DNA of 64,000 nucleotides from Thainema sp. (lineage in GTDB: Bacteria; Cyanobacteriota; Cyanobacteriia; Phormidesmidales; Phormidesmidaceae): positions 1-64,000 of the forward strand of contig JBQLZK010000004.1 in the NCBI GenBank assembly GCA_052168235.1. The letters run 5' to 3'. The position numbers were made by a program, and so were the translations under genes. Below the pieces are notes generated by a model, which was not told the origin of the DNA, searched no databases, and saw only the letters and a program-made list of their open reading frames with translations. The stretch's first letter is position 1. The number at the start of each line of letters is the position of its first letter. This document shows, one piece after another, positions 867 to 37,024 of the stretch.

Positions 867-2513
867 TTATGGTTGATGCTGTCTTAAATCGAGCGGTAAA
901 AAGATGGTCATCACTTCGCCCTGCTTCGGTCGCTGCTTGACGATCATCTTGCCGCCCAGCGCTTGGAATAGGTTTTTGGTGGCCGACAAATTCAGGCTCA
1001 GATTGCCCGTTTCCGGCTGCACCATCAGCAGTTGACCAATTGACTTGAACGCCGCATGGGGATTAAACGCCATGTTGGCAAAGGTGTATGCCTTGTCCGC
1101 CTGGAACCCATCTGAATTAGATTCACCAGCCGCATCATGGGGCAAACTCGACTTGAACTGGAGCTTGAGCTGATGTCCGGCAGGCGTTACGCCGAGCTGT
1201 AGATGACTGCCACCGGGTAAGCTGAGGGCAAACCGCTCAATTAAGTTTGTGAGTACCTGATTCAGCATCACCGGATCGCTGACCACCCAAGGCAGCGTAT
1301 GTGGCAGCGTCACATCGAGCTGAATATTACGCTGCTGCGCCTGCTGCTGCCACTTGGGAATGTTGTCTTCGAACACCTGATCAAGCGCGATCGCACTTAG
1401 CGATCCCATCGACTGGCTCGACTGCTGCGTTTCCAGTTCAACCGCCCGGAAAATCAGGCCAAATCGATCGATCTGCTGGGTACATTCCTGATCAATTTGC
1501 TTCAGTCGATAGAGTACCTTCTCACCCAGTTCAGTGCGACGCATCAGCGAACGGGTTAAGGTGCGAATAGTCGTCAGCGGTGTACGAATTTCGTGCGCCA
1601 TTGCCCGCAGCAGTTCAGCATCTAAGGAGAGCGACGAGGCAACGTCGCTCAGTGGATTAGAGGCGGTTGCAGCGTCGGTGGATGGAGCTGGAGATGTGCG
1701 ATCGCAGTCCTGACCCACCTGCTTGCCATGACCATTGGCCTGAGCCTGGGTTTGGGATACCTGCTGCCGTGCGATGTTTGCCTGCGCTGCTGTGCGAGCG
1801 GCTTCCACTGCCGAGAGGTTCGCCGCCACCACGGGCAGTTGCTTCAGCATCAGCCGCTGAAACTGCATGACAAGCTGGTAGTCCGGCTCCACGGGCGCAA
1901 ACTGCTGGATGTAGGTTTCCATCTGCTGCATCTGATGGGGACTGGTCAGCGACAGGCGAATGCGCAGCGTTTGCCAAGCCCGTTCGACAATGGCCGGATT
2001 GAATGAAAACTGAAATTCGACTGGCCCATCATTCGGCTGACCAAGGGTAAGCACCAAACAGAAGTCGGCGGTCAGCACCAGGCAAAACTGCTCGTTAATA
2101 ATCGGGTCGCTCTGGGAAATCGGCAGCGATACGACTCGCGCGGGTTCTTGAGCCTGTTCCTGAAGACTGGGCGGAAGCTGGAGCGATACCTGAGCAGGTT
2201 CTGAAGTCAACACCCAATCAGCAAAATGCTCGCTCAGGGCAGACGACTCCAGCATCGGCGCTGGCCCGGAAAGCACGACACCTTTGACGGGCATCGCTCC
2301 ATCACAAACGGCGACTGAATAGGTATCAACGTTTTGATTAAGTAGCTGATTCAGGGCCGCGATCGCAGCATACCATTCCTGTTCGGCTCGGTTCTGCTGC
2401 TCACGTGCGGTCACCGCTTGAGGCTCAGCCGCATAGCCACCTGGGATAGCGTCTAACTGATCCAGGGTCAACACCTGACTGAGTGTGGGTAGCCTCCTCG
2501 CTTGACCTGACAT
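867..2513 (-). CDS. Sensor histidine kinase with degenerate ATP-binding domain (Hik34-like)
   Basis: H-box AHEIRTPLTTIRTL; no DxGxG G1 box; ETGNLSLNL C-terminal motif. Start placed at ATG 2513; the ORF extends to 2627. Confidence 0.7.
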   Translation of the reverse strand: MSGQARRLPTLSQVLTLDQLDAIPGGYAAEPQAVTAREQQNRAEQEWYAAIAALNQLLNQNVDTYSVAVCDGAMPVKGVVLSGPAPMLESSALSEHFADWVLTSEPAQVSLQLPPSLQEQAQEPARVVSLPISQSDPIINEQFCLVLTADFCLVLTLGQPNDGPVEFQFSFNPAIVERAWQTLRIRLSLTSPHQMQQMETYIQQFAPVEPDYQLVMQFQRLMLKQLPVVAANLSAVEAARTAAQANIARQQVSQTQAQANGHGKQVGQDCDRTSPAPSTDAATASNPLSDVASSLSLDAELLRAMAHEIRTPLTTIRTLTRSLMRRTELGEKVLYRLKQIDQECTQQIDRFGLIFRAVELETQQSSQSMGSLSAIALDQVFEDNIPKWQQQAQQRNIQLDVTLPHTLPWVVSDPVMLNQVLTNLIERFALSLPGGSHLQLGVTPAGHQLKLQFKSSLPHDAAGESNSDGFQADKAYTFANMAFNPHAAFKSIGQLLMVQPETGNLSLNLSATKNLFQALGGKMIVKQRPKQGEVMTIFLPLDLRQHQP

Positions 2514-2899: not shown

Positions 2900-4012
2900 A
2901 TGTCACCCGCCAAACGCATTTGCATTACGTTGGGAACGCGACCGGAAGCGATTAAGCTGGCTCCGGTGATTCAGCAATTTCAGCAGTCAGCCGACTTTGA
3001 AACCCACGTCGTCCTGACGGGGCAGCACCGCGAAATGGTCGATCAGGTGATGGAGCTGTTTGGGCTAGAAGCAACCCATGATTTGGATATCATGCAGCCT
3101 AAGCAAACGCTGACGGATATCACCCAGCGCAGTCTGCAAGGGTTGGAATCTCTCTTTCAAACCATTCAGCCGCAGGTGGTGCTGGTGCAGGGCGACACGA
3201 CCACTGCCTTTGCTGCCGCGCTGGCTGCGTTTTATCAAAAAATTCCGGTTGGTCACGTTGAGGCTGGCTTGCGTACCGACGATCTCTATAATCCCTATCC
3301 CGAAGAAGCCAATCGACGGTTGATTTCGCAGCTTAGTTTTCTGCACTTTGCGCCCACGGAAACCGCCGTGCAGCATCTGAAAAATTCTAGCGTCGTCGGC
3401 GAAATTCACCAGACGGGCAACACGGTGATTGACGCCTTGCTGACGGTGGCCGACAGATCGCCGGAGTGCGACGTGCCGGGACTCGATTGGAATCAGCACC
3501 GCGTCCTGCTAGCCACCGTCCATCGGCGGGAGAACTGGGGCGAACCGCTGCACAGTATTGCCCAGGGCTTTCTGGATACGCTGAACCAGTTTCCGGATAC
3601 TGCTCTGCTGCTGCCGCTGCACCGCAATCCCACCGTGCGCGAACCATTGACACAGATCTTGGGCGATCATCCCCGCGTCTTTTTGACGGAACCGCTGGAT
3701 TATGCGGCTTTGGTGGGTGCGATTCAGCGCTGTCACCTGCTGCTCACGGACTCCGGTGGGCTACAGGAAGAAGCGCCCAGTTTGGGAAAACCCGTACTGG
3801 TATTGCGCGAAACCACCGAACGTCCAGAAGCGATCGCAGCGGGCACCGCAAAGTTAATTGGCACCGATGCCGCCACCATTACCACTGAAGCCGCAAAATT
3901 ACTGGAATCCGAAACGGCCTATCAAGAGATGGCGAATGCGGTGAATCCTTTTGGCGACGGGCAGGCAGCTCGGCGCATTCTCAAGATTGTGGGCGACTAT
4001 CTCGGTGCTTAG
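2900..4012 (+). CDS. wecB: UDP-N-acetylglucosamine 2-epimerase (non-hydrolysing)
   Basis: GTRPEAIK, TGQHR, QGDT, HVEAGLR, HRREN, DSGGLQEEAP motifs. Confidence 0.95.
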   Translation: MSPAKRICITLGTRPEAIKLAPVIQQFQQSADFETHVVLTGQHREMVDQVMELFGLEATHDLDIMQPKQTLTDITQRSLQGLESLFQTIQPQVVLVQGDTTTAFAAALAAFYQKIPVGHVEAGLRTDDLYNPYPEEANRRLISQLSFLHFAPTETAVQHLKNSSVVGEIHQTGNTVIDALLTVADRSPECDVPGLDWNQHRVLLATVHRRENWGEPLHSIAQGFLDTLNQFPDTALLLPLHRNPTVREPLTQILGDHPRVFLTEPLDYAALVGAIQRCHLLLTDSGGLQEEAPSLGKPVLVLRETTERPEAIAAGTAKLIGTDAATITTEAAKLLESETAYQEMANAVNPFGDGQAARRILKIVGDYLGA

Positions 4013-7591: not shown

Positions 7592-7662
<71 letters not shown>

Positions 7663-8172: not shown

Positions 8173-9381
8173 GTCAGATGGCAGGGAGGTGGGGCGCACT
8201 TCTAGCTGCAGGGGTTTATCAGCGCGGATGATGTCAATCGTCACGGGTTCACCAATCTGACTGCCCTCAACTTCTTGCTGGACCTCAGACGCTTTTTGCA
8301 CCGGAACATTGTTGACTTTGACAATGATGTCGCCGTCCTGTAATCCTGCTGCCTCTGCTGGAGTACCTGGCATGACTCGCACTATTAGCACGCCTTCATC
8401 TTGATTGATTTTGAAGCCAATTTCCGGATCGCTATTGATGCGATCGCGCAATTCAGACGACAGGTCATACATCTGAATGCCTAGATATGGATGCTGAACT
8501 TCACCGGATTCAAAAAGCTGTTCTGAAATGCGCAGTGCCGTTTCAATTGGAATTGCAAAGCCCAATCCCTGTGCATCAGCGCGAATAGCCGTATTGATAC
8601 CAACGACTTCGCCTCGGTCGTTCAGCAGCGGGCCGCCGGAATTGCCTGGATTAATGGCTGCATCGGTCTGAATAAACTGCACCCGTTTGTCGGGAATGCC
8701 AATTTGCGAACTCGAACGGCCCAGAGCGCTAATGATGCCAGCCGTAACGGTATTGTCGAGGCCAAGGGGATTACCAATGGCGATCGCCCATTGCCCCGGC
8801 GTTAAATCTTCAGATCGACCGATGCTTACATTCGGCAAGTTGGTAGCTTCAATTTGAATCGCGGCTACGTCTGTCACGGAATCGGCCCCGATAACTCGTC
8901 CTTCAAATGTGCGACCGTCTTTGAGCGTCACTGTCACAGTTTCAGCGCCTTCAACCACATGGGCATTGGTGATAATCTGCCCGTTTTGGTTGAGAATGAA
9001 GCCCGAGCCCGTTCCCTGCTCCACCCGCTCTTGAGGAATATTCGGGATTTCATCACCAAAAAAGCGGCGAAAGATGGGATTTTCAAACGCATCTGGTATT
9101 TGTCGCGCGACCGTCCGCGAGGCATCAATCCGCACTACGGATGGGCCAACTTTTTCGACGGCGTCTGCGATAAAGTTTGGGTTCGTGGGTGCGATCGCAA
9201 CTGCTGTTTGTGCTGGTTCACGATTCGACTTAGGTTCTAGAGCTGCCGGAACGGTGGATGCAGGAGATTCGATGGCGCGCTCAGCGTTGCGATTGAAATA
9301 TTGATGGCTGGCCCAGCCTGCTCCACTGCCAATCGCTAAAAAGGCCGCATAGAGTCCAAGCTGTTTCACTGATAAGCCCAT
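8170..9381 (-). CDS. HtrA/DegP family serine protease (HhoA/HhoB type) with PDZ domain
   Basis: GTGSGFI, TNAHVV, TDAAINPGNSGGPL, C-terminal PDZ; N-terminal hydrophobic anchor. Confidence 0.93.
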   Translation of the reverse strand: MGLSVKQLGLYAAFLAIGSGAGWASHQYFNRNAERAIESPASTVPAALEPKSNREPAQTAVAIAPTNPNFIADAVEKVGPSVVRIDASRTVARQIPDAFENPIFRRFFGDEIPNIPQERVEQGTGSGFILNQNGQIITNAHVVEGAETVTVTLKDGRTFEGRVIGADSVTDVAAIQIEATNLPNVSIGRSEDLTPGQWAIAIGNPLGLDNTVTAGIISALGRSSSQIGIPDKRVQFIQTDAAINPGNSGGPLLNDRGEVVGINTAIRADAQGLGFAIPIETALRISEQLFESGEVQHPYLGIQMYDLSSELRDRINSDPEIGFKINQDEGVLIVRVMPGTPAEAAGLQDGDIIVKVNNVPVQKASEVQQEVEGSQIGEPVTIDIIRADKPLQLEVRPTSLPSD

Positions 9382-9637
9382 AATATTTGCCGCTGAGTTA
9401 CTGCCGATGCTGATAGGTTTTAGTCTAATGTAGCTAAAACTTGAATTAACTGGTTCATTTTTGGACTTTGATTGGACTTTGAATTGAGTTCTACCTGTCC
9501 TGATCGGTGATCCAGGAGATGAAGGTGGGATTAAGGGTCGCGCAATTTGGGACATCCTATATCTCTGGGACTTTCATTGCGATCGCACAATTCGGTACAG
9601 TTGGCAGACAGGAGTTAGGCATCAGGTAGGCATCGGT

Positions 9638-32741: not shown

Positions 32742-32760
32742 TGGCACACGATTACATGAT

Positions 32761-32820
32761 TGCGATCGCACTTTCTATTCCTATCTTCATACTTGAATAT
32801 TGGGAAAGTGCGATCGCACC
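32761..32820 (+). repeat. HIP1-bounded ~58-bp direct repeat, copy 1
   Basis: TGCGATCGCACTTTCTATTCC...TTGAATATTGGGAAAGTGCGATCGCACC. Confidence 0.8.
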
Positions 32821-32838
32821 ATACAAGCTCCACAATCA

Positions 32839-33462
32839 TCATTTACCAGCACTCAAAATTTGTTCAGCCGTTAGCTTCAATCCTGGAAAAGTTGACGAGT
32901 CGATAGTTTGATTGCCTCGCAGCTGCTGAATTTCGTACTCTCCATCGACCAGCGTACAGATAGAAAGAGTGGGCTGTTTGGGTTTACCAATGTATCGAGT
33001 TCCGCCCAATCCTGCGTAGTCTGCAATCCAATATTCGGGGATACCTAAAGCTGCATAGTCTTCAACTTTACGAGCATAGTCGTTTTGCCAGTTGCTGCTA
33101 ACAACTTCGGCGATAAATTTAATCGAACTGCCTAGAGTCAGGATCGATTGGTCAGGCCAGAGCGGTTCTTGGGGCAATTCACCTTGGTCAATAACTGCAA
33201 CATCAGGTCGAAATGCAGTCATACCGATGTTAGAAGGGCGCAACAATCCGCGTTGCAGCACAAACCAAGGTGAACCTGTGCTGTCGATTTGGACGCAAAG
33301 CTTGCGAGTGATGAAGGCGGCCACTTCCTCATGCTGACCCGTTGGTTCCAAGTCAAACACCTCTCCATCAATCAGCTCATAGCGCTTATCCCCACCATAA
33401 CGGTTGAGGAACTGATCAAAGTCGAGCGACTGTTGTATTGGCTGGTTGAACGCAATAGTCAT
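32839..33462 (-). CDS. Uma2 family (PD-(D/E)xK) putative endonuclease
   Basis: YELIDG, RPDVAV, AEVVS, DYARKVEDYAALGIPEYWI. Confidence 0.92.
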   Translation of the reverse strand: MTIAFNQPIQQSLDFDQFLNRYGGDKRYELIDGEVFDLEPTGQHEEVAAFITRKLCVQIDSTGSPWFVLQRGLLRPSNIGMTAFRPDVAVIDQGELPQEPLWPDQSILTLGSSIKFIAEVVSSNWQNDYARKVEDYAALGIPEYWIADYAGLGGTRYIGKPKQPTLSICTLVDGEYEIQQLRGNQTIDSSTFPGLKLTAEQILSAGK

Positions 33463-33516
33463 AGGCCAACTTTGTCCCATCGGTGCCTTCAGTCTACTCT
33501 AGAAAAATTTAGAATT

Positions 33517-33623
33517 TGCGATCGCACTTCTATTCCCACCTTCTATTTGAATCTTGGGAAAGTGCGATCGCACCTTACTACTCCTACCCACCTTCTATTT
33601 GAGCTTTGGAAAAGTGCGATCGG
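33517..33623 (+). repeat. HIP1-bounded repeat, copies 2 and 3 (tandem)
   Basis: TGCGATCGCACTTCTATTCCCACCTTCTATTTGAATCTTGGGAAAGTGCGATCGCACC then CCCACCTTCTATTTGAGCTTTGGAAAAGTGCGATCGG. Confidence 0.8.
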
Positions 33624-33708
33624 ACTAACGGTGAAGTTGTGCGGCGGCAGACAGGCTTGAACTCTCACCGATAACCTTTGTGCCGTCCGCACCAACGAAG
33701 TGTTAGGC
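33623..33708 (-). mobile_element. attC: Integron attC recombination site (86 bp)
   Basis: Minus strand: R'' GCCTAAC (contains the Rieske stop), 5-nt spacer, L'' GTTGGTGC (one extra base vs L'), GGACGGCA/TGCCGCC stem with a second unpaired base, L' GCACAAC, 6-nt spacer, R' GTTAGTC. Confidence 0.85.
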
Positions 33709-34674
33709 TGCTAATGAATGGTTCCAGTTTTTGTAAAGTTCTTCTGCGTAGAACATAATCTCTTCATTTGGCAGATGAAGCTTAGCTTTTTGCCTTGGGT
33801 ATAAACTTTCAAGGCAATCCGCATCTTGTTGAACCACAATCGAAGCTGCATTGAGTAGAGAATCCTGCATGATTGGTTTTAATTCAGGATTGCTAAATTT
33901 TGCATAGAGCAGGATGAAAGTCTTAGTCGTATCCTCTGTCTCTGGATAAAGAATATGTCCTTGATACGTTTTGACATCAGGAGAATTCAAGCAAAAGAAC
34001 TGAGTTGATGGAAAAACATATTCAAGGAAATTTTCCATCACTTCCGGAATTGCTCCTAGCATCGGATTGGCTTCAATCTCTTCTGCTGTGTAGTCATCTT
34101 TCTCAGCTACCTGAGAAACTTTAGCGTAAATACCATCTTTTTCAAGAAATGTAGATCGAGTGGATTTGACCTTGAAAAACTCTCTGTGAGTACCATTTTG
34201 ATGATCGTGATCATAATTGATCATCAGGCTACTCAAGAAGCTATTTTGAATACTTCTCAGAGCAGTCACTCCCAAAAATTCATATTCAGATGCAACTTTC
34301 CTATGTAACTCGGGAATAGGTAGCCGAGGATCAAACCCACCATAAGTCCAAATGAAGTCACCATCAACAATCAACTCTAATGGTTCGGCTAGCGGTACAC
34401 GGCTTAACCCACAATCTCGCAACAAATGCCCTGACCCATCGAATTCCACAGCATGAAACGGGCAGGTGATCGAATTACGCTCCTCACAAATCCATCCATT
34501 GGACAACGGAGCTTGCATATGTGGACAAATATTGTTAAGAGCAAAAACCTCTCCAGCGGCATTCTGCCAAAGGACGTAATCTTGACCATTCAGCGTGATT
34601 TTATATGGTTTGTTGACCTCCAGCATAGACTTATGGGCTATGAGCCAAGGCGCACCGGGAAGAATGGGAAGCAT
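33703..34674 (-). CDS. Rieske [2Fe-2S] non-heme iron oxygenase (VanA-like family)
   Basis: CPHMQAPL...CPFHAVEF Rieske motif; D.DHQNGTH Fe ligands; QDADC; AT-richer than neighbours with no HIP1 site. Confidence 0.88.
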   Translation of the reverse strand: MLPILPGAPWLIAHKSMLEVNKPYKITLNGQDYVLWQNAAGEVFALNNICPHMQAPLSNGWICEERNSITCPFHAVEFDGSGHLLRDCGLSRVPLAEPLELIVDGDFIWTYGGFDPRLPIPELHRKVASEYEFLGVTALRSIQNSFLSSLMINYDHDHQNGTHREFFKVKSTRSTFLEKDGIYAKVSQVAEKDDYTAEEIEANPMLGAIPEVMENFLEYVFPSTQFFCLNSPDVKTYQGHILYPETEDTTKTFILLYAKFSNPELKPIMQDSLLNAASIVVQQDADCLESLYPRQKAKLHLPNEEIMFYAEELYKNWNHSLAA

Positions 34675-34690
34675 AACGTATCGAACCTCT

Positions 34691-34730
34691 AATTAAACAC
34701 TTGTTTAGTTAATTAAACGGATGTTTAATT
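34691..34730. promoter_or_regulatory. Two tandem 20-bp palindromic operators (probable TetR sites)
   Basis: AATTAAACACTTGTTTAGTT followed by AATTAAACGGATGTTTAATT, in the divergent intergenic gap. Confidence 0.65.
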
Positions 34731-34807
34731 AATCTGTCAAGTATCTCTGATGGAAAACCAGGGGGTAGGCTGGATACAGTCGTCTGTTTGCTGGATCAAC
34801 CTAGGTC

Positions 34808-35449
34808 ATGCCCAAATTGTCTAACTCTGCTGCCAAAAAGGAAAAGCAAAGCCGTAATCCGGAAGTCACAAAGGCTAATATTCTGTCGGCTGCGATTGAA
34901 GAATTTGCACAGTACGGTTTGTCTGGCGCACGGACAGAGGCGATCGCATCTCGTAGCGGCGTCACAAAAGCAATGCTTTGTTACTACTTTAAAAACAAGG
35001 AAACCCTTTACCGATCGGTTTTACAGCAGCTTGTTGACGACATTAACAACGCCTTTCAAAACATTGATTGGGAAAAGCTGTCTGCCGATCAGGCGCTAGA
35101 GGCAGTTGTCCGAAACTATATCGGATTTGAGGTCAGCAATCGCTGGCATGGAATGCTATGGTTCCAGGAAGCTATTCAGAACCAAGGTCGCTATGGTGCA
35201 GAGACAGGATGGCAAGCGGGTTTTCAAACGATTGTAGAAATCTTGGAACGAGGAATCGCTGAGAAAAAATTCCGCCAGGTTGATCCGTTTCTAACAGCAA
35301 TTAATATTTTGGGTATCTGCTCGTTTTACTTCGATGCCCATGAAAACCTGAAATACCTTGACTCTAATAAAGACCTTCTAAGTTCTGACATGGTCAAGCA
35401 GCAAACAGAAACGGCTGTCGAGTTTATTCTTGCAGGTATAGCGGCTTAA
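34808..35449 (+). CDS. TetR/AcrR family transcriptional regulator
   Basis: ILSAAIEEFAQYGLSGARTEAIASRSGVTKAMLCYYFKNKETLY HTH. Confidence 0.93.
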   Translation: MPKLSNSAAKKEKQSRNPEVTKANILSAAIEEFAQYGLSGARTEAIASRSGVTKAMLCYYFKNKETLYRSVLQQLVDDINNAFQNIDWEKLSADQALEAVVRNYIGFEVSNRWHGMLWFQEAIQNQGRYGAETGWQAGFQTIVEILERGIAEKKFRQVDPFLTAINILGICSFYFDAHENLKYLDSNKDLLSSDMVKQQTETAVEFILAGIAA

Positions 35450-35611
35450 ACGCATACCTGCTTAAGCCGCCTAACTATTAATTAGACGGAAATAGTCTAC
35501 TTAAACCGCCAAATTGGGTGTTTAGGTAGAAATCTGTCAGCCTAAACATACCAATTGCGGTGTTTAGGTGGAAACGTTCAGTATAACCACCCTACGATTT
35601 GGAATTGTGGC

Positions 35612-35667
35612 ACGGATACAAGGATGACCACCAAACTGTTTTGGATTGTATAGGTCCTTTCGAGTAG
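35612..35667 (-). pseudogene. DUF433 (antitoxin-like) N-terminal remnant
   Basis: LLER, 8-nt gap (frameshift), then NPKQFGGHPCIR; matches the DUF433 NP...GG.PCIR signature from recall. Confidence 0.55.
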
Positions 35668-35692
35668 TTTTAACTTTTTATAAAGCATCAAA

Positions 35693-35731
35693 CATCACTT
35701 ACCAGCACTCAAAACTTGTTCAGCCGTTAGC
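35693..35731 (+). repeat. 39-bp duplicate of the Uma2 gene 3' end (32837-32875)
   Basis: 37/39 identical, direct orientation. Confidence 0.9.
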
Positions 35732-35804
35732 CGGACAGATTTATGACCGATTAGTGGCGCATTTTGGACATGATGCCATTTTTAAGGATGTGGATGACAT
35801 TCTA
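35730..35804 (+). pseudogene. TIR (TIR_2) domain fragment
   Basis: Translates AGQIYDRLVAHFGHDAIFKDVDDIL, resembling the bacterial TIR GRIYDRL..FG...F.DVD.I segment. Confidence 0.6.
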
Positions 35805-35826
35805 AATTGCACATCACGTCAGTAAG

Positions 35827-36408
35827 CTATCCTTGCAAAATCTGCTCAGCAATCAACTGCAAGGCTGAAAACATGGGTGGCTCGATCACCTCTGTGCCTG
35901 AATACTCTGCTGCCTCATACCACCCTTCCAACAGCATACACACCGTTACCCTCTCCTTCAGCGGGTCAACGATCCAATACTCTGGAATATCCAGCACGCT
36001 ATACTCTGCCCGCTTGGCCCGATAGTCCGTACTCTTCGTAGACTCGCTCACCACCTCCACCACCAGTAACGGTGGCGGCTCGTTCAGACGAATGACCGCT
36101 TCCCGGTTTTGCAATGTCTCCCATTGCGCCAACGTTAGCACCGTCACATCCGGAATCCGCACTGTATCCCAGGCTTCACCCCGAGGCGATTGCAGCCCAA
36201 CTGTTCCCGCCAGCGCAATCCACGGCTGCCGCAGACGCTCAATCTCATCATCCAAAATACGCTCCAAACGCTTGATGATGGCTCCGTGACGACCAGTCCC
36301 TAAACTCATCGGCAGCAGATCCCCATTCAGCAACTCATAGCGAACATCACTGCCATCGTCATAGGCCAGATATTCCTCTAGAGTTAAGCGCTGAGTGGCG
36401 ATCGACAT
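35827..36408 (-). CDS. Uma2 family putative endonuclease
   Basis: YELLNG, RIPDVTV, VEVVSES..TDYRAKRAEYSVLDIPEYWIVDP. Confidence 0.92.
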   Translation of the reverse strand: MSIATQRLTLEEYLAYDDGSDVRYELLNGDLLPMSLGTGRHGAIIKRLERILDDEIERLRQPWIALAGTVGLQSPRGEAWDTVRIPDVTVLTLAQWETLQNREAVIRLNEPPPLLVVEVVSESTKSTDYRAKRAEYSVLDIPEYWIVDPLKERVTVCMLLEGWYEAAEYSGTEVIEPPMFSALQLIAEQILQG

Positions 36409-36478
36409 AGCTAGGTCGTTGCAACAGTAAGGTCTTACCCAAATCGCAAAATGTAGTGGATAACGCCTGCTTAACGGG

Positions 36479-37024
36479 TTAAGCGGCGGAATCGTGGTGA
36501 TTAGGGGGTTGGTCGATGAGCAGCGCGTCTAGATCCGGTGGGGGAATGATTAGCGTGACGGCGGGTTGTTCGGTCGCGGGTTGATGATTTTCCTGAGAGG
36601 GTTCGACCACGACATCAAGAACCGTCGTTGATGAATCGGGTTGTTCTGTCATTGCTGCCGCCGCGTCTGAATCTGTCGGTTTTGCAGGTGCGGGTTCAGC
36701 CGATGCCGTTTCAACCGCCTCTACCGGACTCACAGGGCACTCTTCCACAGGCACGGCCTCAGTGGAACTCTCTTCTGCGACACTCACATCATCAGCCGCT
36801 TCAGCAGATTCAGCATCCTCATCGATCCAGGGCGAATCGAAATGGTGCCAAGGCAAAATTGGACTATTAGGTAACTCACTGGATAAAACCGTGATGTTCT
36901 CCTTATCGGGTTCAGGAATACAAAGACCATCCTGAGCCGAACATCCATTTTGGGACATTTCAGTAATCGGAGGATTCATAACGGAGACCAACGCGACAGG
37001 CGATGTGCAGGATTTGCCAACCAT
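36479..37024 (-). CDS. Acidic low-complexity hypothetical protein
   Basis: ORF abuts the upstream gene stop; SPILPWHHFDSPW motif followed by an Asp/Glu/Pro-rich tail. Confidence 0.55.
   Translation of the reverse strand: MVGKSCTSPVALVSVMNPPITEMSQNGCSAQDGLCIPEPDKENITVLSSELPNSPILPWHHFDSPWIDEDAESAEAADDVSVAEESSTEAVPVEECPVSPVEAVETASAEPAPAKPTDSDAAAAMTEQPDSSTTVLDVVVEPSQENHQPATEQPAVTLIIPPPDLDALLIDQPPNHHDSAA

Follow-up and report, generated by a model that had tools for sequence, protein, structure and literature searches.

How does a single gene cassette, closed by an attC recombination site, come to lie in a chromosome with no integron integrase beside it? The question is raised by a 64,000-nt stretch of DNA from the cyanobacterium Thainema sp. 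(hereafter the window), which forms the first 64 kb of contig C4 (JBQLZK010000004.1) in an assembly of 7.54 Mb and 205 contigs, 99.99% complete by marker genes (GCA_052168235.1). An initial annotation had described there a cassette with a Rieske oxygenase gene and a divergent TetR-type regulator gene, and had proposed that it was inserted in trans at an ordinary chromosomal site. Our results suggest instead that the locus is quite probably the integrase-less remnant of a cyanobacterial chromosomal integron, made of an attI-type site followed by one cassette that ends in attC. This reading is carried by an attC family with covariation, by the linkage of both this family and the hairpin arrays of the attI-type site to integron integrase genes (intI), by the recurrence of the cassette as one block in another genus, and by the absence of intact intI.

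The attC site covers 86 nt of the minus strand (33623..33708) and reads, from 33708 to 33623, GCCTAAC-ACTTC-GTTG-G-TGCGG-A-CGGC...GCCG-CCGCA-CAAC-TTCACC-GTTAG. It opens with the R'' box GCCTAAC (33708..33702), which contains the TAA stop codon of the Rieske open reading frame, continues as a bulged, imperfect stem and closes with the R' box GTTAG (33629..33625), the crossover point G|TT lying at 33629|33628. The 5' arm holds two bases more than the 3' arm (GTTG-G-TGCGG-A-CGGC vs GCCG-CCGCA-CAAC), leaving a bulged G and a bulged A. The inverted cores of attC sites (R'' RYYYAAC, R' GTTRRRY) appear as GCCTAAC...GTTAGTC, the sixth base of R' being a T and not a purine, as would be expected of a chimeric junction. 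The hallmarks listed in the initial annotation were all present as described, and the site was confirmed by its family copies and their covariation. Taken alone, its folding energy is weak and only suggestive evidence: the plus (bottom) strand folds at -19.1 kcal/mol with a z-score of -2.49 (2 of 200 shuffles were equally good) and the minus strand reaches a z-score of -1.52. It is thus because of its relatives, in the own genome and in other cyanobacteria, and not because of its folding, that the site stands out from chance.

BLAST of the own genome retrieved near-full-length copies on two other contigs (89% and 87% identity) and a diverged copy (72%), and a profile search added others, among them three sites on a single strand of contig C80 and one site that adjoins the integrase stump of contig C41. 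The 86-nt element recurs in 60 other genomes of the class at 85–93% identity, and when copies were aligned with their flanks, conservation started at ..CCTAAC and ended at GTTAG(C/G), with unrelated sequences outside. We then considered 41 sites (26 close and 15 diverged) in a MAFFT alignment that was not fitted to structure, in which TAAC and GTTA were at least 90% conserved. The attC-type pairing held for 80.9% of cells, against 73.0 ± 0.7 in shuffles, and 17 of the 23 pairs had changed on both sides, against 10.2 ± 1.4; none of 500 shuffles matched either value. Sliding the partner by 1–3 columns lowered the pairing to 27–44%, and the unpaired 5'-arm columns 20 and 28 were retained throughout, so that the hairpin keeps both its pairing and its extrahelical bases in one arm. 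The covariance-model check recommended in the initial annotation was made with a model built from this alignment (R1); with filters off it gave a single match in the window, at 97.8 bits on the minus strand vs 11.6 bits on the plus strand, a score that is partly circular since the model includes the window's own site, unlike the BLAST and alignment results, which are not circular. The second-best match in the window reached 13.5 bits (E 0.31). R1 also retrieved 18 sites at E <= 1 on 11 contigs of the assembly, among which the window site is the only one on the 198-kb contig C4; the cassette is therefore solitary in the attC sense, as had been claimed.

Integron integrases were surveyed in 401 genomes sampled from the class and 14 control genomes, using the NCBIfam model TIGR02249 at its curated cut-off. 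Matches above the cut-off occurred in 127 of the 401 genomes, often several and up to 5 per genome, and none was found in the 14 controls at the same E-value. R1 sites lie divergent from intact intI in four (L023, L025, L029 and L031) of the eight intI loci whose upstream sequence spans 400 nt or more; the other four had no R1 match in the 430–1,500 nt of upstream sequence examined. In genome G245, an intact intI is followed, ~630 nt away and on the opposite strand, by three R1 sites spaced 308 nt, with a fourth ~2.4 kb beyond this array; G049, L025 (intI#1 of genome G005) and L031 each show one R1 site divergent from intI within their short flanks, and in the own genome the attC arrays of C41 and C80 adjoin an intI stump. 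Same-strand arrays divergent from intI are thus a property of the family, which the window locus itself does not display. From this association with intI, the R1 family appears to behave as the attC sites of cyanobacterial integrons. In G245, moreover, the bases that follow the attI core are also those that follow the first attC (TTAGCTAGCTCCGCCGCC), and the crossover is therefore placed at G|TT.

A generic dispersed repeat, terminator or structured RNA, with no role in recombination, could be proposed for the 86-nt element, whose sequence is unusually conserved, loop included, across different families (85–93%), whose loop carries a direct repeat (GAGGTTATC..GAGGTTATC) and no palindrome, and for which a gathering-threshold scan of the whole window with Rfam returned no attC family, its sole match being a tRNA at 7592-7662. 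We nevertheless hold this explanation to be extremely improbable, given the RYYYAAC/GTTRRRY-type ends, the conserved bulges, the compensatory changes in diverged members, the same-strand arrays divergent from intact intI and the identical cassette starts after attI and after attC in G245. By its sequence, the minus-strand element at 33623-33708 is a real and functional-looking attC.

The extent of the cassette could be approached from its other end. The initial annotation had noticed, far upstream, a motif matching R'' better than the present R' does, and this proved correct: GTTAGGCGGC (35475..35466, minus strand), which lies upstream of the attC GTT by 1,846 nt, can pair with the extended R'' (GCAGCCTAAC) at 9 of 10 positions, and the present R' GTTAGTC pairs less well. 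These two G|TT points would delimit a cassette of 1,846 bp (33629..35474, minus strand), running from TTAGGCGGC... to ...CACCG, with the chimeric junctions ...TAATAG|TTAGGCGGC (attI/cassette) and ...CACCG|TTAGTCC (attC/old attI right side). Such boundaries around a two-gene cassette with its own regulatory region, as originally predicted, are supported by the complementarity with R'', by an attI-type core that abuts the cassette, and by the complete genome G005, which belongs to a different genus of the same family and contains window positions 33626-35462 as one 1,837-nt block at 88.2% identity, within different flanks. At the attC end, homology with this block stops after the GTTA of R'; G005 thus confirms the predicted attC-end boundary exactly and the other boundary approximately.

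On the cassette, the Rieske [2Fe-2S] non-haem oxygenase gene (33703..34674, minus strand) encodes 323 aa with a Pfam Rieske domain (1.3e-18) and a weak VanA_C match. Its best solved relative is the dicamba O-demethylase DdmC (E 7e-9, over the N-terminal domain only), and no NCBIfam model exceeded its cut-off. The TetR-family regulator gene (34808..35449, plus strand; 213 aa; Pfam TetR_N 5.8e-13 and TetR_C_29, with all NCBIfam matches below cut-offs) points away from the Rieske gene and against the direction of the cassette. The 133-nt intergenic region between both genes holds two adjacent palindromes (34690..34732), TAATTAAACA-CT-TGTTTAGTTA and TTAATTAAAC-GGAT-GTTTAATTAA, which are candidate TetR operators, an arrangement consistent with a TetR-regulated divergent pair. 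Only 25 nt separate the tetR stop from the cassette edge, and a stem-loop read from the sequence follows this stop (35441..35470, plus strand; GCGGCTTAA-12 nt-TTAAGCCGC), with a 3' arm that overlaps the first bases of the cassette; the terminator scan did not score it as a terminator.

The minus-strand region that abuts the cassette start (35470..35600) has an ordered layout: first GGGTGGTTATACTGAA, next a pair of 42-nt units that form hairpins (35574..35533 and 35532..35491; TTTCCACCTAAAC..loop..GTTTAGGCTGAC), and finally a core CGTCTAATTAATAG|TTAGG (35488..35470). BLAST located this element at eight places in the own genome. Two copies adjoin divergent intI stumps, C41:2334-2503 next to a 70-residue stump at 2280..2065 and C71:30856-30936 next to a 35-residue one. 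Wherever more than 1 kb of sequence lies downstream, in four copies, the element is followed by one to three same-strand R1 attC sites (C41 two, C80 three, C1 two and C4 one), the remaining four copies lying at most 320 nt from a contig end. Two copies were also found in G001, the sole congeneric genome, each with an R1 site 1.0–1.7 kb downstream. Every copy starts with a conserved TATACT box, its array being closed by the crossover core, and the similarity of the window platform to the other copies stops ~10–15 nt upstream of TATACT.

Intact integrons carry comparable arrays at the same position. The interval between intI and the first cassette contains six tandem units ending in GTCTAAATAAGAG|TTAGC (..TAAGAG|TTAGC) in G245 and about four ending in GTCTATAAAGTAG|TTAGC (..AAGTAG|TTAGC) in G049, and a core ..(T/G)AG|TT(A/G).. 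was found 260–460 nt from the intI start in all eight intI loci with at least 400 nt, four by pattern and four by eye. Tandem Repeats Finder (TRF) detected the hairpin array in only two of these eight intI-proximal regions because the units are too diverged, and these regions were read directly. Folded singly, 13 of 25 attI units had z-scores below -2, and RNAalifold, run on the 25 units, retrieved no more than the outer CTAA/TTAG pairs and a single compensatory pair, no inner-stem covariation being claimed. Position and conservation thus mark 35470-35600 as a probable attI-type site at the integrase-proximal end of the cassette. More broadly, cyanobacterial attI regions were observed to consist of 2–6 tandem 41–42-nt units, each a hairpin resembling a miniature attC (e.g. 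GCCTAA[T]CACCC-loop-GGGTGTTAGGC), as in window 35470-35600, L060 2334-2503, L059 6254-6377, L036 8209-8374, L065 ~9285-9545 and L066 ~2046-2210. Searches of the literature did not find a hairpin-array attI described, and full-text searches did not find a paper centred on cyanobacterial integrons or their attI, subscription journals being outside the coverage of both.

The attI-type core bears directly on the insertion in trans envisaged in the initial annotation. A free cassette brought by IntI into an ordinary chromosomal GTT, through attC x attG recombination, would explain a single attC on a 198-kb contig of an assembly with no complete intI, and this route to single attC sites is experimentally documented (Loot et al., bioRxiv 10.1101/2022.09.11.507474). 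Such an insertion also seems to have occurred in L067, the gene pair's closest relative without attC: its tetR and Rieske genes are separated by a ~800-bp segment (L067 2623-3418) that carries an inverted R1 site (3132-3222, minus) and is framed on both sides by about 35 nt of the control region. This segment looks like a candidate secondary-site (attG-type) cassette insertion, of the kind initially envisaged for the window. At the window locus, however, the single attC without intI is not accompanied by an ordinary site: the upstream junction is the core at the end of an element found, in intact integrons, between intI and the first cassette and, in the own genome, next to the intI stumps, and every copy of it with enough downstream sequence is then followed by attC sites. 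Insertion at an ordinary GTT is hence unlikely. Since the upstream junction is the core of a presumed attI, the locus would represent a canonical attI x attC product, on a platform without its integrase. The empty site predicted by the initial annotation was not found in G001, the only same-genus genome, and its left half, CGTCTAATTAATAG|, turned out to be the attI core.

The absence of a complete integrase extends to the whole assembly. TIGR02249 gave no match above its cut-off, the sole match covering positions 1-62 of the model at 69.6 bits vs a cut-off of 265 and corresponding to the C41 stump. The five PF00589 matches in the assembly all lie outside contig C4, tblastn with five intact cyanobacterial IntI proteins returned only the C41 and C71 stumps, and a tblastn search for an intI remnant in window 35401-37000 gave noise only (best E about 0.1). 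The earlier statement that no integrase is nearby therefore holds for the window and for C4, and extends to complete genes in the assembly; the search for intI elsewhere in the genome, which had been suggested as a check, was rewarded by two N-terminal stumps (C41 and C71) and no complete gene. A complete integron, with an adjacent intI above threshold, is present neither in the window, nor on C4, nor in the whole assembly. G001 likewise had no integron integrase at E <= 1e-30. Both genomes of the genus that were searched are thus without intact intI, yet both have kept several attI-cassette units, a persistence that speaks for integrase loss at the level of the genus. We infer that intI was lost, rather than never present.

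In the history that we propose, an IntI tyrosine recombinase would have paired the folded bottom strand of the cassette attC (the plus strand of the window) with attI, and strand exchange at G|TT would have left the chimeric attI/cassette and attC/old-attI junctions; that IntI made these junctions is likewise an inference. The cassette would be self-contained, with a TetR-family repressor divergent from a Rieske oxygenase and a common 133-nt control region bearing two operator candidates, and with a control region of its own it would therefore be expressed independently of the integron promoter Pc. The integrase gene expected beyond attI would be gone, leaving only the two N-terminal stumps elsewhere in the genome, and the cassette would therefore be frozen unless IntI is supplied in trans.

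Several observations weigh against this history. Besides the partial circularity of the R1 score, the bulged bases on the bottom strand of the attC are C and T, whereas those of classical attC sites are T and G. The attribution of 35470-35600 to attI comes from its position and conservation only. At the 5' end, homology with G005 is lost over the first 13 nt of the predicted cassette, leaving this boundary without a second independent junction, and the promoters and terminators predicted in 33500-35750 were no more numerous than in shuffles (4 promoters found, 4.1 expected). No empty attI with the predicted right-hand flank was found, and G001 differs from the window by a replacement: 180 bp stand there in place of window 32820-35724 (2.9 kb), so that the attI, the cassette, three 57-nt units bounded by HIP1 palindromes and a gene of the Uma2 family are missing together. 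Direct repeats of 43 bp (93% identity), at 32833-32875 and 35689-35731, bracket the missing block; a replacement and repeats of this kind leave room for a different route of arrival or movement of the block. In this respect, the repeats were considered as possible traces of an insertion, site-specific or homologous, of the 2.9-kb block as a whole.

A further explanation would leave the genes immobile: only an attC, or a tiny empty cassette, would have been added downstream of a resident TetR-Rieske pair, the upstream GTTAGG being coincidental. Rieske homologues were collected from species genomes (80) and metagenome contigs (36): 49 of 81 loci have a divergent TetR homologue next to the Rieske gene, and R1 sites were found in only five genome loci (of 80) and two metagenome loci (of 36), so that the divergent pair is common without attC. 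Two attC-less relatives, L074 (92% nucleotide identity over 550 nt, with a 5'-truncated gene) and L067 (77%), part from the cassette copy ~17 nt ahead of R'', and G005 does not share the 5' junction. Against a resident pair, the genes lie exactly between the attI core and attC, with only 25 nt left past the tetR stop; the first 10 cassette nt complement R'' at 9 of 10 positions, a rule that the cassettes of G245 follow as well; and the same block stands at an unrelated place in G005 and is absent from the same-genus G001. We therefore consider genes that never moved to be distinctly improbable, below even the insertion at an ordinary GTT. As a separate candidate, the TTAGCA before R'' was tried as the scar of an empty mini-cassette and rejected, its preceding base being A and not G and the L074 homology ending 8 nt earlier.

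The same relatives inform on where the cargo came from. In a quick tree of 99 distinct Rieske proteins (six duplicate rows dropped, SH-aLRT support only, midpoint rooting for drawing), the window and G005 proteins group together (support 97) inside a clade (support 100) with the attC-less L067, L147, L073 and L148, with, as sister group, 49 Nostocales rows that lack attC and are mostly linked to TetR. A separate clade (support 97), in which attC is carried independently, is made up of Rieske cassettes of one gene (L099, L083/L085 and L150/L151), and the attC label requires at least two changes on the tree. The tetR relatives, for their part, diverge right at the tetR stop. This pattern favours the gain of an attC by a resident TetR-Rieske module, the alternative being attC loss in the relatives. 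That the gene pair is widespread without attC suggests that an ordinary chromosomal module may have become an integron cassette recently and in a traceable manner, a birth that we put forward tentatively, as a possibility that we would not yet call probable. One possible route would be the insertion of an attC at a genomic site, followed by an excision using a second GTT beyond the neighbouring genes. How cassettes are made is stated to be unknown in Cury 2016 (PMC4889954), and if the birth reading is true, the states with and without attC would provide natural before and after sequences for this question. The cassette, with its regulator and presumed target and its close attC-less relatives, is a usable test case for cassette genesis.

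Compared with the attC sites of chromosomal integrons, the window site has the same inverted R''/R' cores, the extra bases in the R''-L'' arm and the stop codon inside R'', and its relatives form same-strand arrays divergent from intI in related genomes; it differs by being the single attC of a locus with no integrase and by its top-strand bulges, G and A. attC sites are thought to be conserved in structure only, and the uniformity observed here is greater than this would lead one to expect: one subtype (loci L037-L056) is 85–93% identical across many cyanobacterial families, loop included. Covariance models of attC specific to 11 taxa, Cyanobacteria among them, have been published (Ghaly et al. 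2021, PMC8352920).

The window locus belongs to an established category of integron remnants, the attC clusters with no integron-integrase (CALIN) and the single attC sites lacking an integron-integrase (SALIN) (Cury 2016, PMC4889954; Neron 2022, PMC9024848; Loot et al., bioRxiv 10.1101/2022.09.11.507474), with which it shares a single attC with a gene and no intI nearby. IntegronFinder would report it only with --calin-threshold 1. Loot et al. explain SALINs by cassette insertion at non-att genomic sites (attG) (bioRxiv 10.1101/2022.09.11.507474); the window attC differs by abutting an attI-type site, which fits the older explanation by integrase loss, and it is because attI is recognisable that the locus can be assigned to this route. 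According to Cury 2016 (PMC4889954), attI is unknown for most integrons and cannot be searched for. For this reason, decayed and inserted orphan cassettes are not told apart routinely. A recognisable attI would allow orphan cassettes to be sorted between decayed integrons and true secondary-site insertions, which current pipelines cannot do; the attI hairpin array and the possible birth of the cassette deserve to be followed further.

In mobile integrons, attI1 combines the L and R boxes of its core with accessory direct repeats that bind the integrase. The cyanobacterial element resembles the attI of these integrons by its location between intI and the first cassette, by the repeated core-like motifs that precede its end, and by its closing inverted repeat, imperfect and set around G|TTAGG (CTAA-7 nt-TTAG), and differs by its 2–6 tandem 41–42-nt hairpins shaped as miniature attC sites (GCCTAA[T]C...GTTAGGC). 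As for the cargo, toxin-antitoxin and some resistance cassettes are examples of cassettes with their own promoter. The existence of such cassettes, and sizes of up to about 2 kb, are stated in Cury 2016 (PMC4889954), so that the two divergent genes with their own promoter region, singled out in the initial annotation, remain uncommon without being new. The window cassette shares with them an internal control region and no reliance on Pc, lies near the upper end of these sizes with its 1,846 bp, and departs from them in combining two divergent genes, a repressor and its presumed target, one of which is antisense to the cassette direction. It has no medical bearing, coming from an environmental cyanobacterium with a small-molecule oxygenase as cargo.

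Around the G005 copy, no attI was found within the 16 kb searched. Past the 5' side of its block come a gene of the GFA family, a repeat of 95 bp and another two R1 sites, the block standing there in a longer interval that follows another attC and this repeat. This repeat is direct (L035 8610-8707 and 10085-10180), carries an internal terminator-like hairpin and sits just upstream of the shared cassette; the segment that it flanks contains a glyoxalase/VOC-like open reading frame, a weak attC (30.1 bits) and a GFA-family open reading frame, named from their translations by eye. In the own genome, C80:24055-24524 and C41:2230-2682 are near-identical copies of an intI start, attI, first cassette and attC that diverge just after the attC GTTAGAC, and they therefore represent either one first cassette in two platforms or an assembly repeat split over two contigs.

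On the right flank of the window cassette, the Uma2-family gene (32839-33480, minus strand), whose 3' end is the left copy of the 43-bp repeat, has a counterpart in genome G003 (L061 3474-4128) at 81% nucleotide identity. In both genomes this gene stands 107–142 nt after the last attC (4235-4324 in L061), and no attC was detectable after it in either; the shared position could be a coincidence among abundant Uma2 genes or the conserved right flank of a platform. The ~57-nt unit bounded by GTGCGATCGCAC (HIP1) palindromes is present in three copies in the window (32760-32831, 33516-33584 and 33563-33622) and in one copy in G001. At the other edge of the replaced block, G001 (L034) has an open reading frame that looks TIR-like by eye; it begins with MPKIFISYRRVDSEDVAGRIYDRLVA, a little ahead of the position from which G001 and the window are homologous again. 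The corresponding window region (~35690-35800, plus strand) has, by manual translation only, a different 5' end, and the rearrangement relative to G001 may have altered the start of a TIR-like gene.

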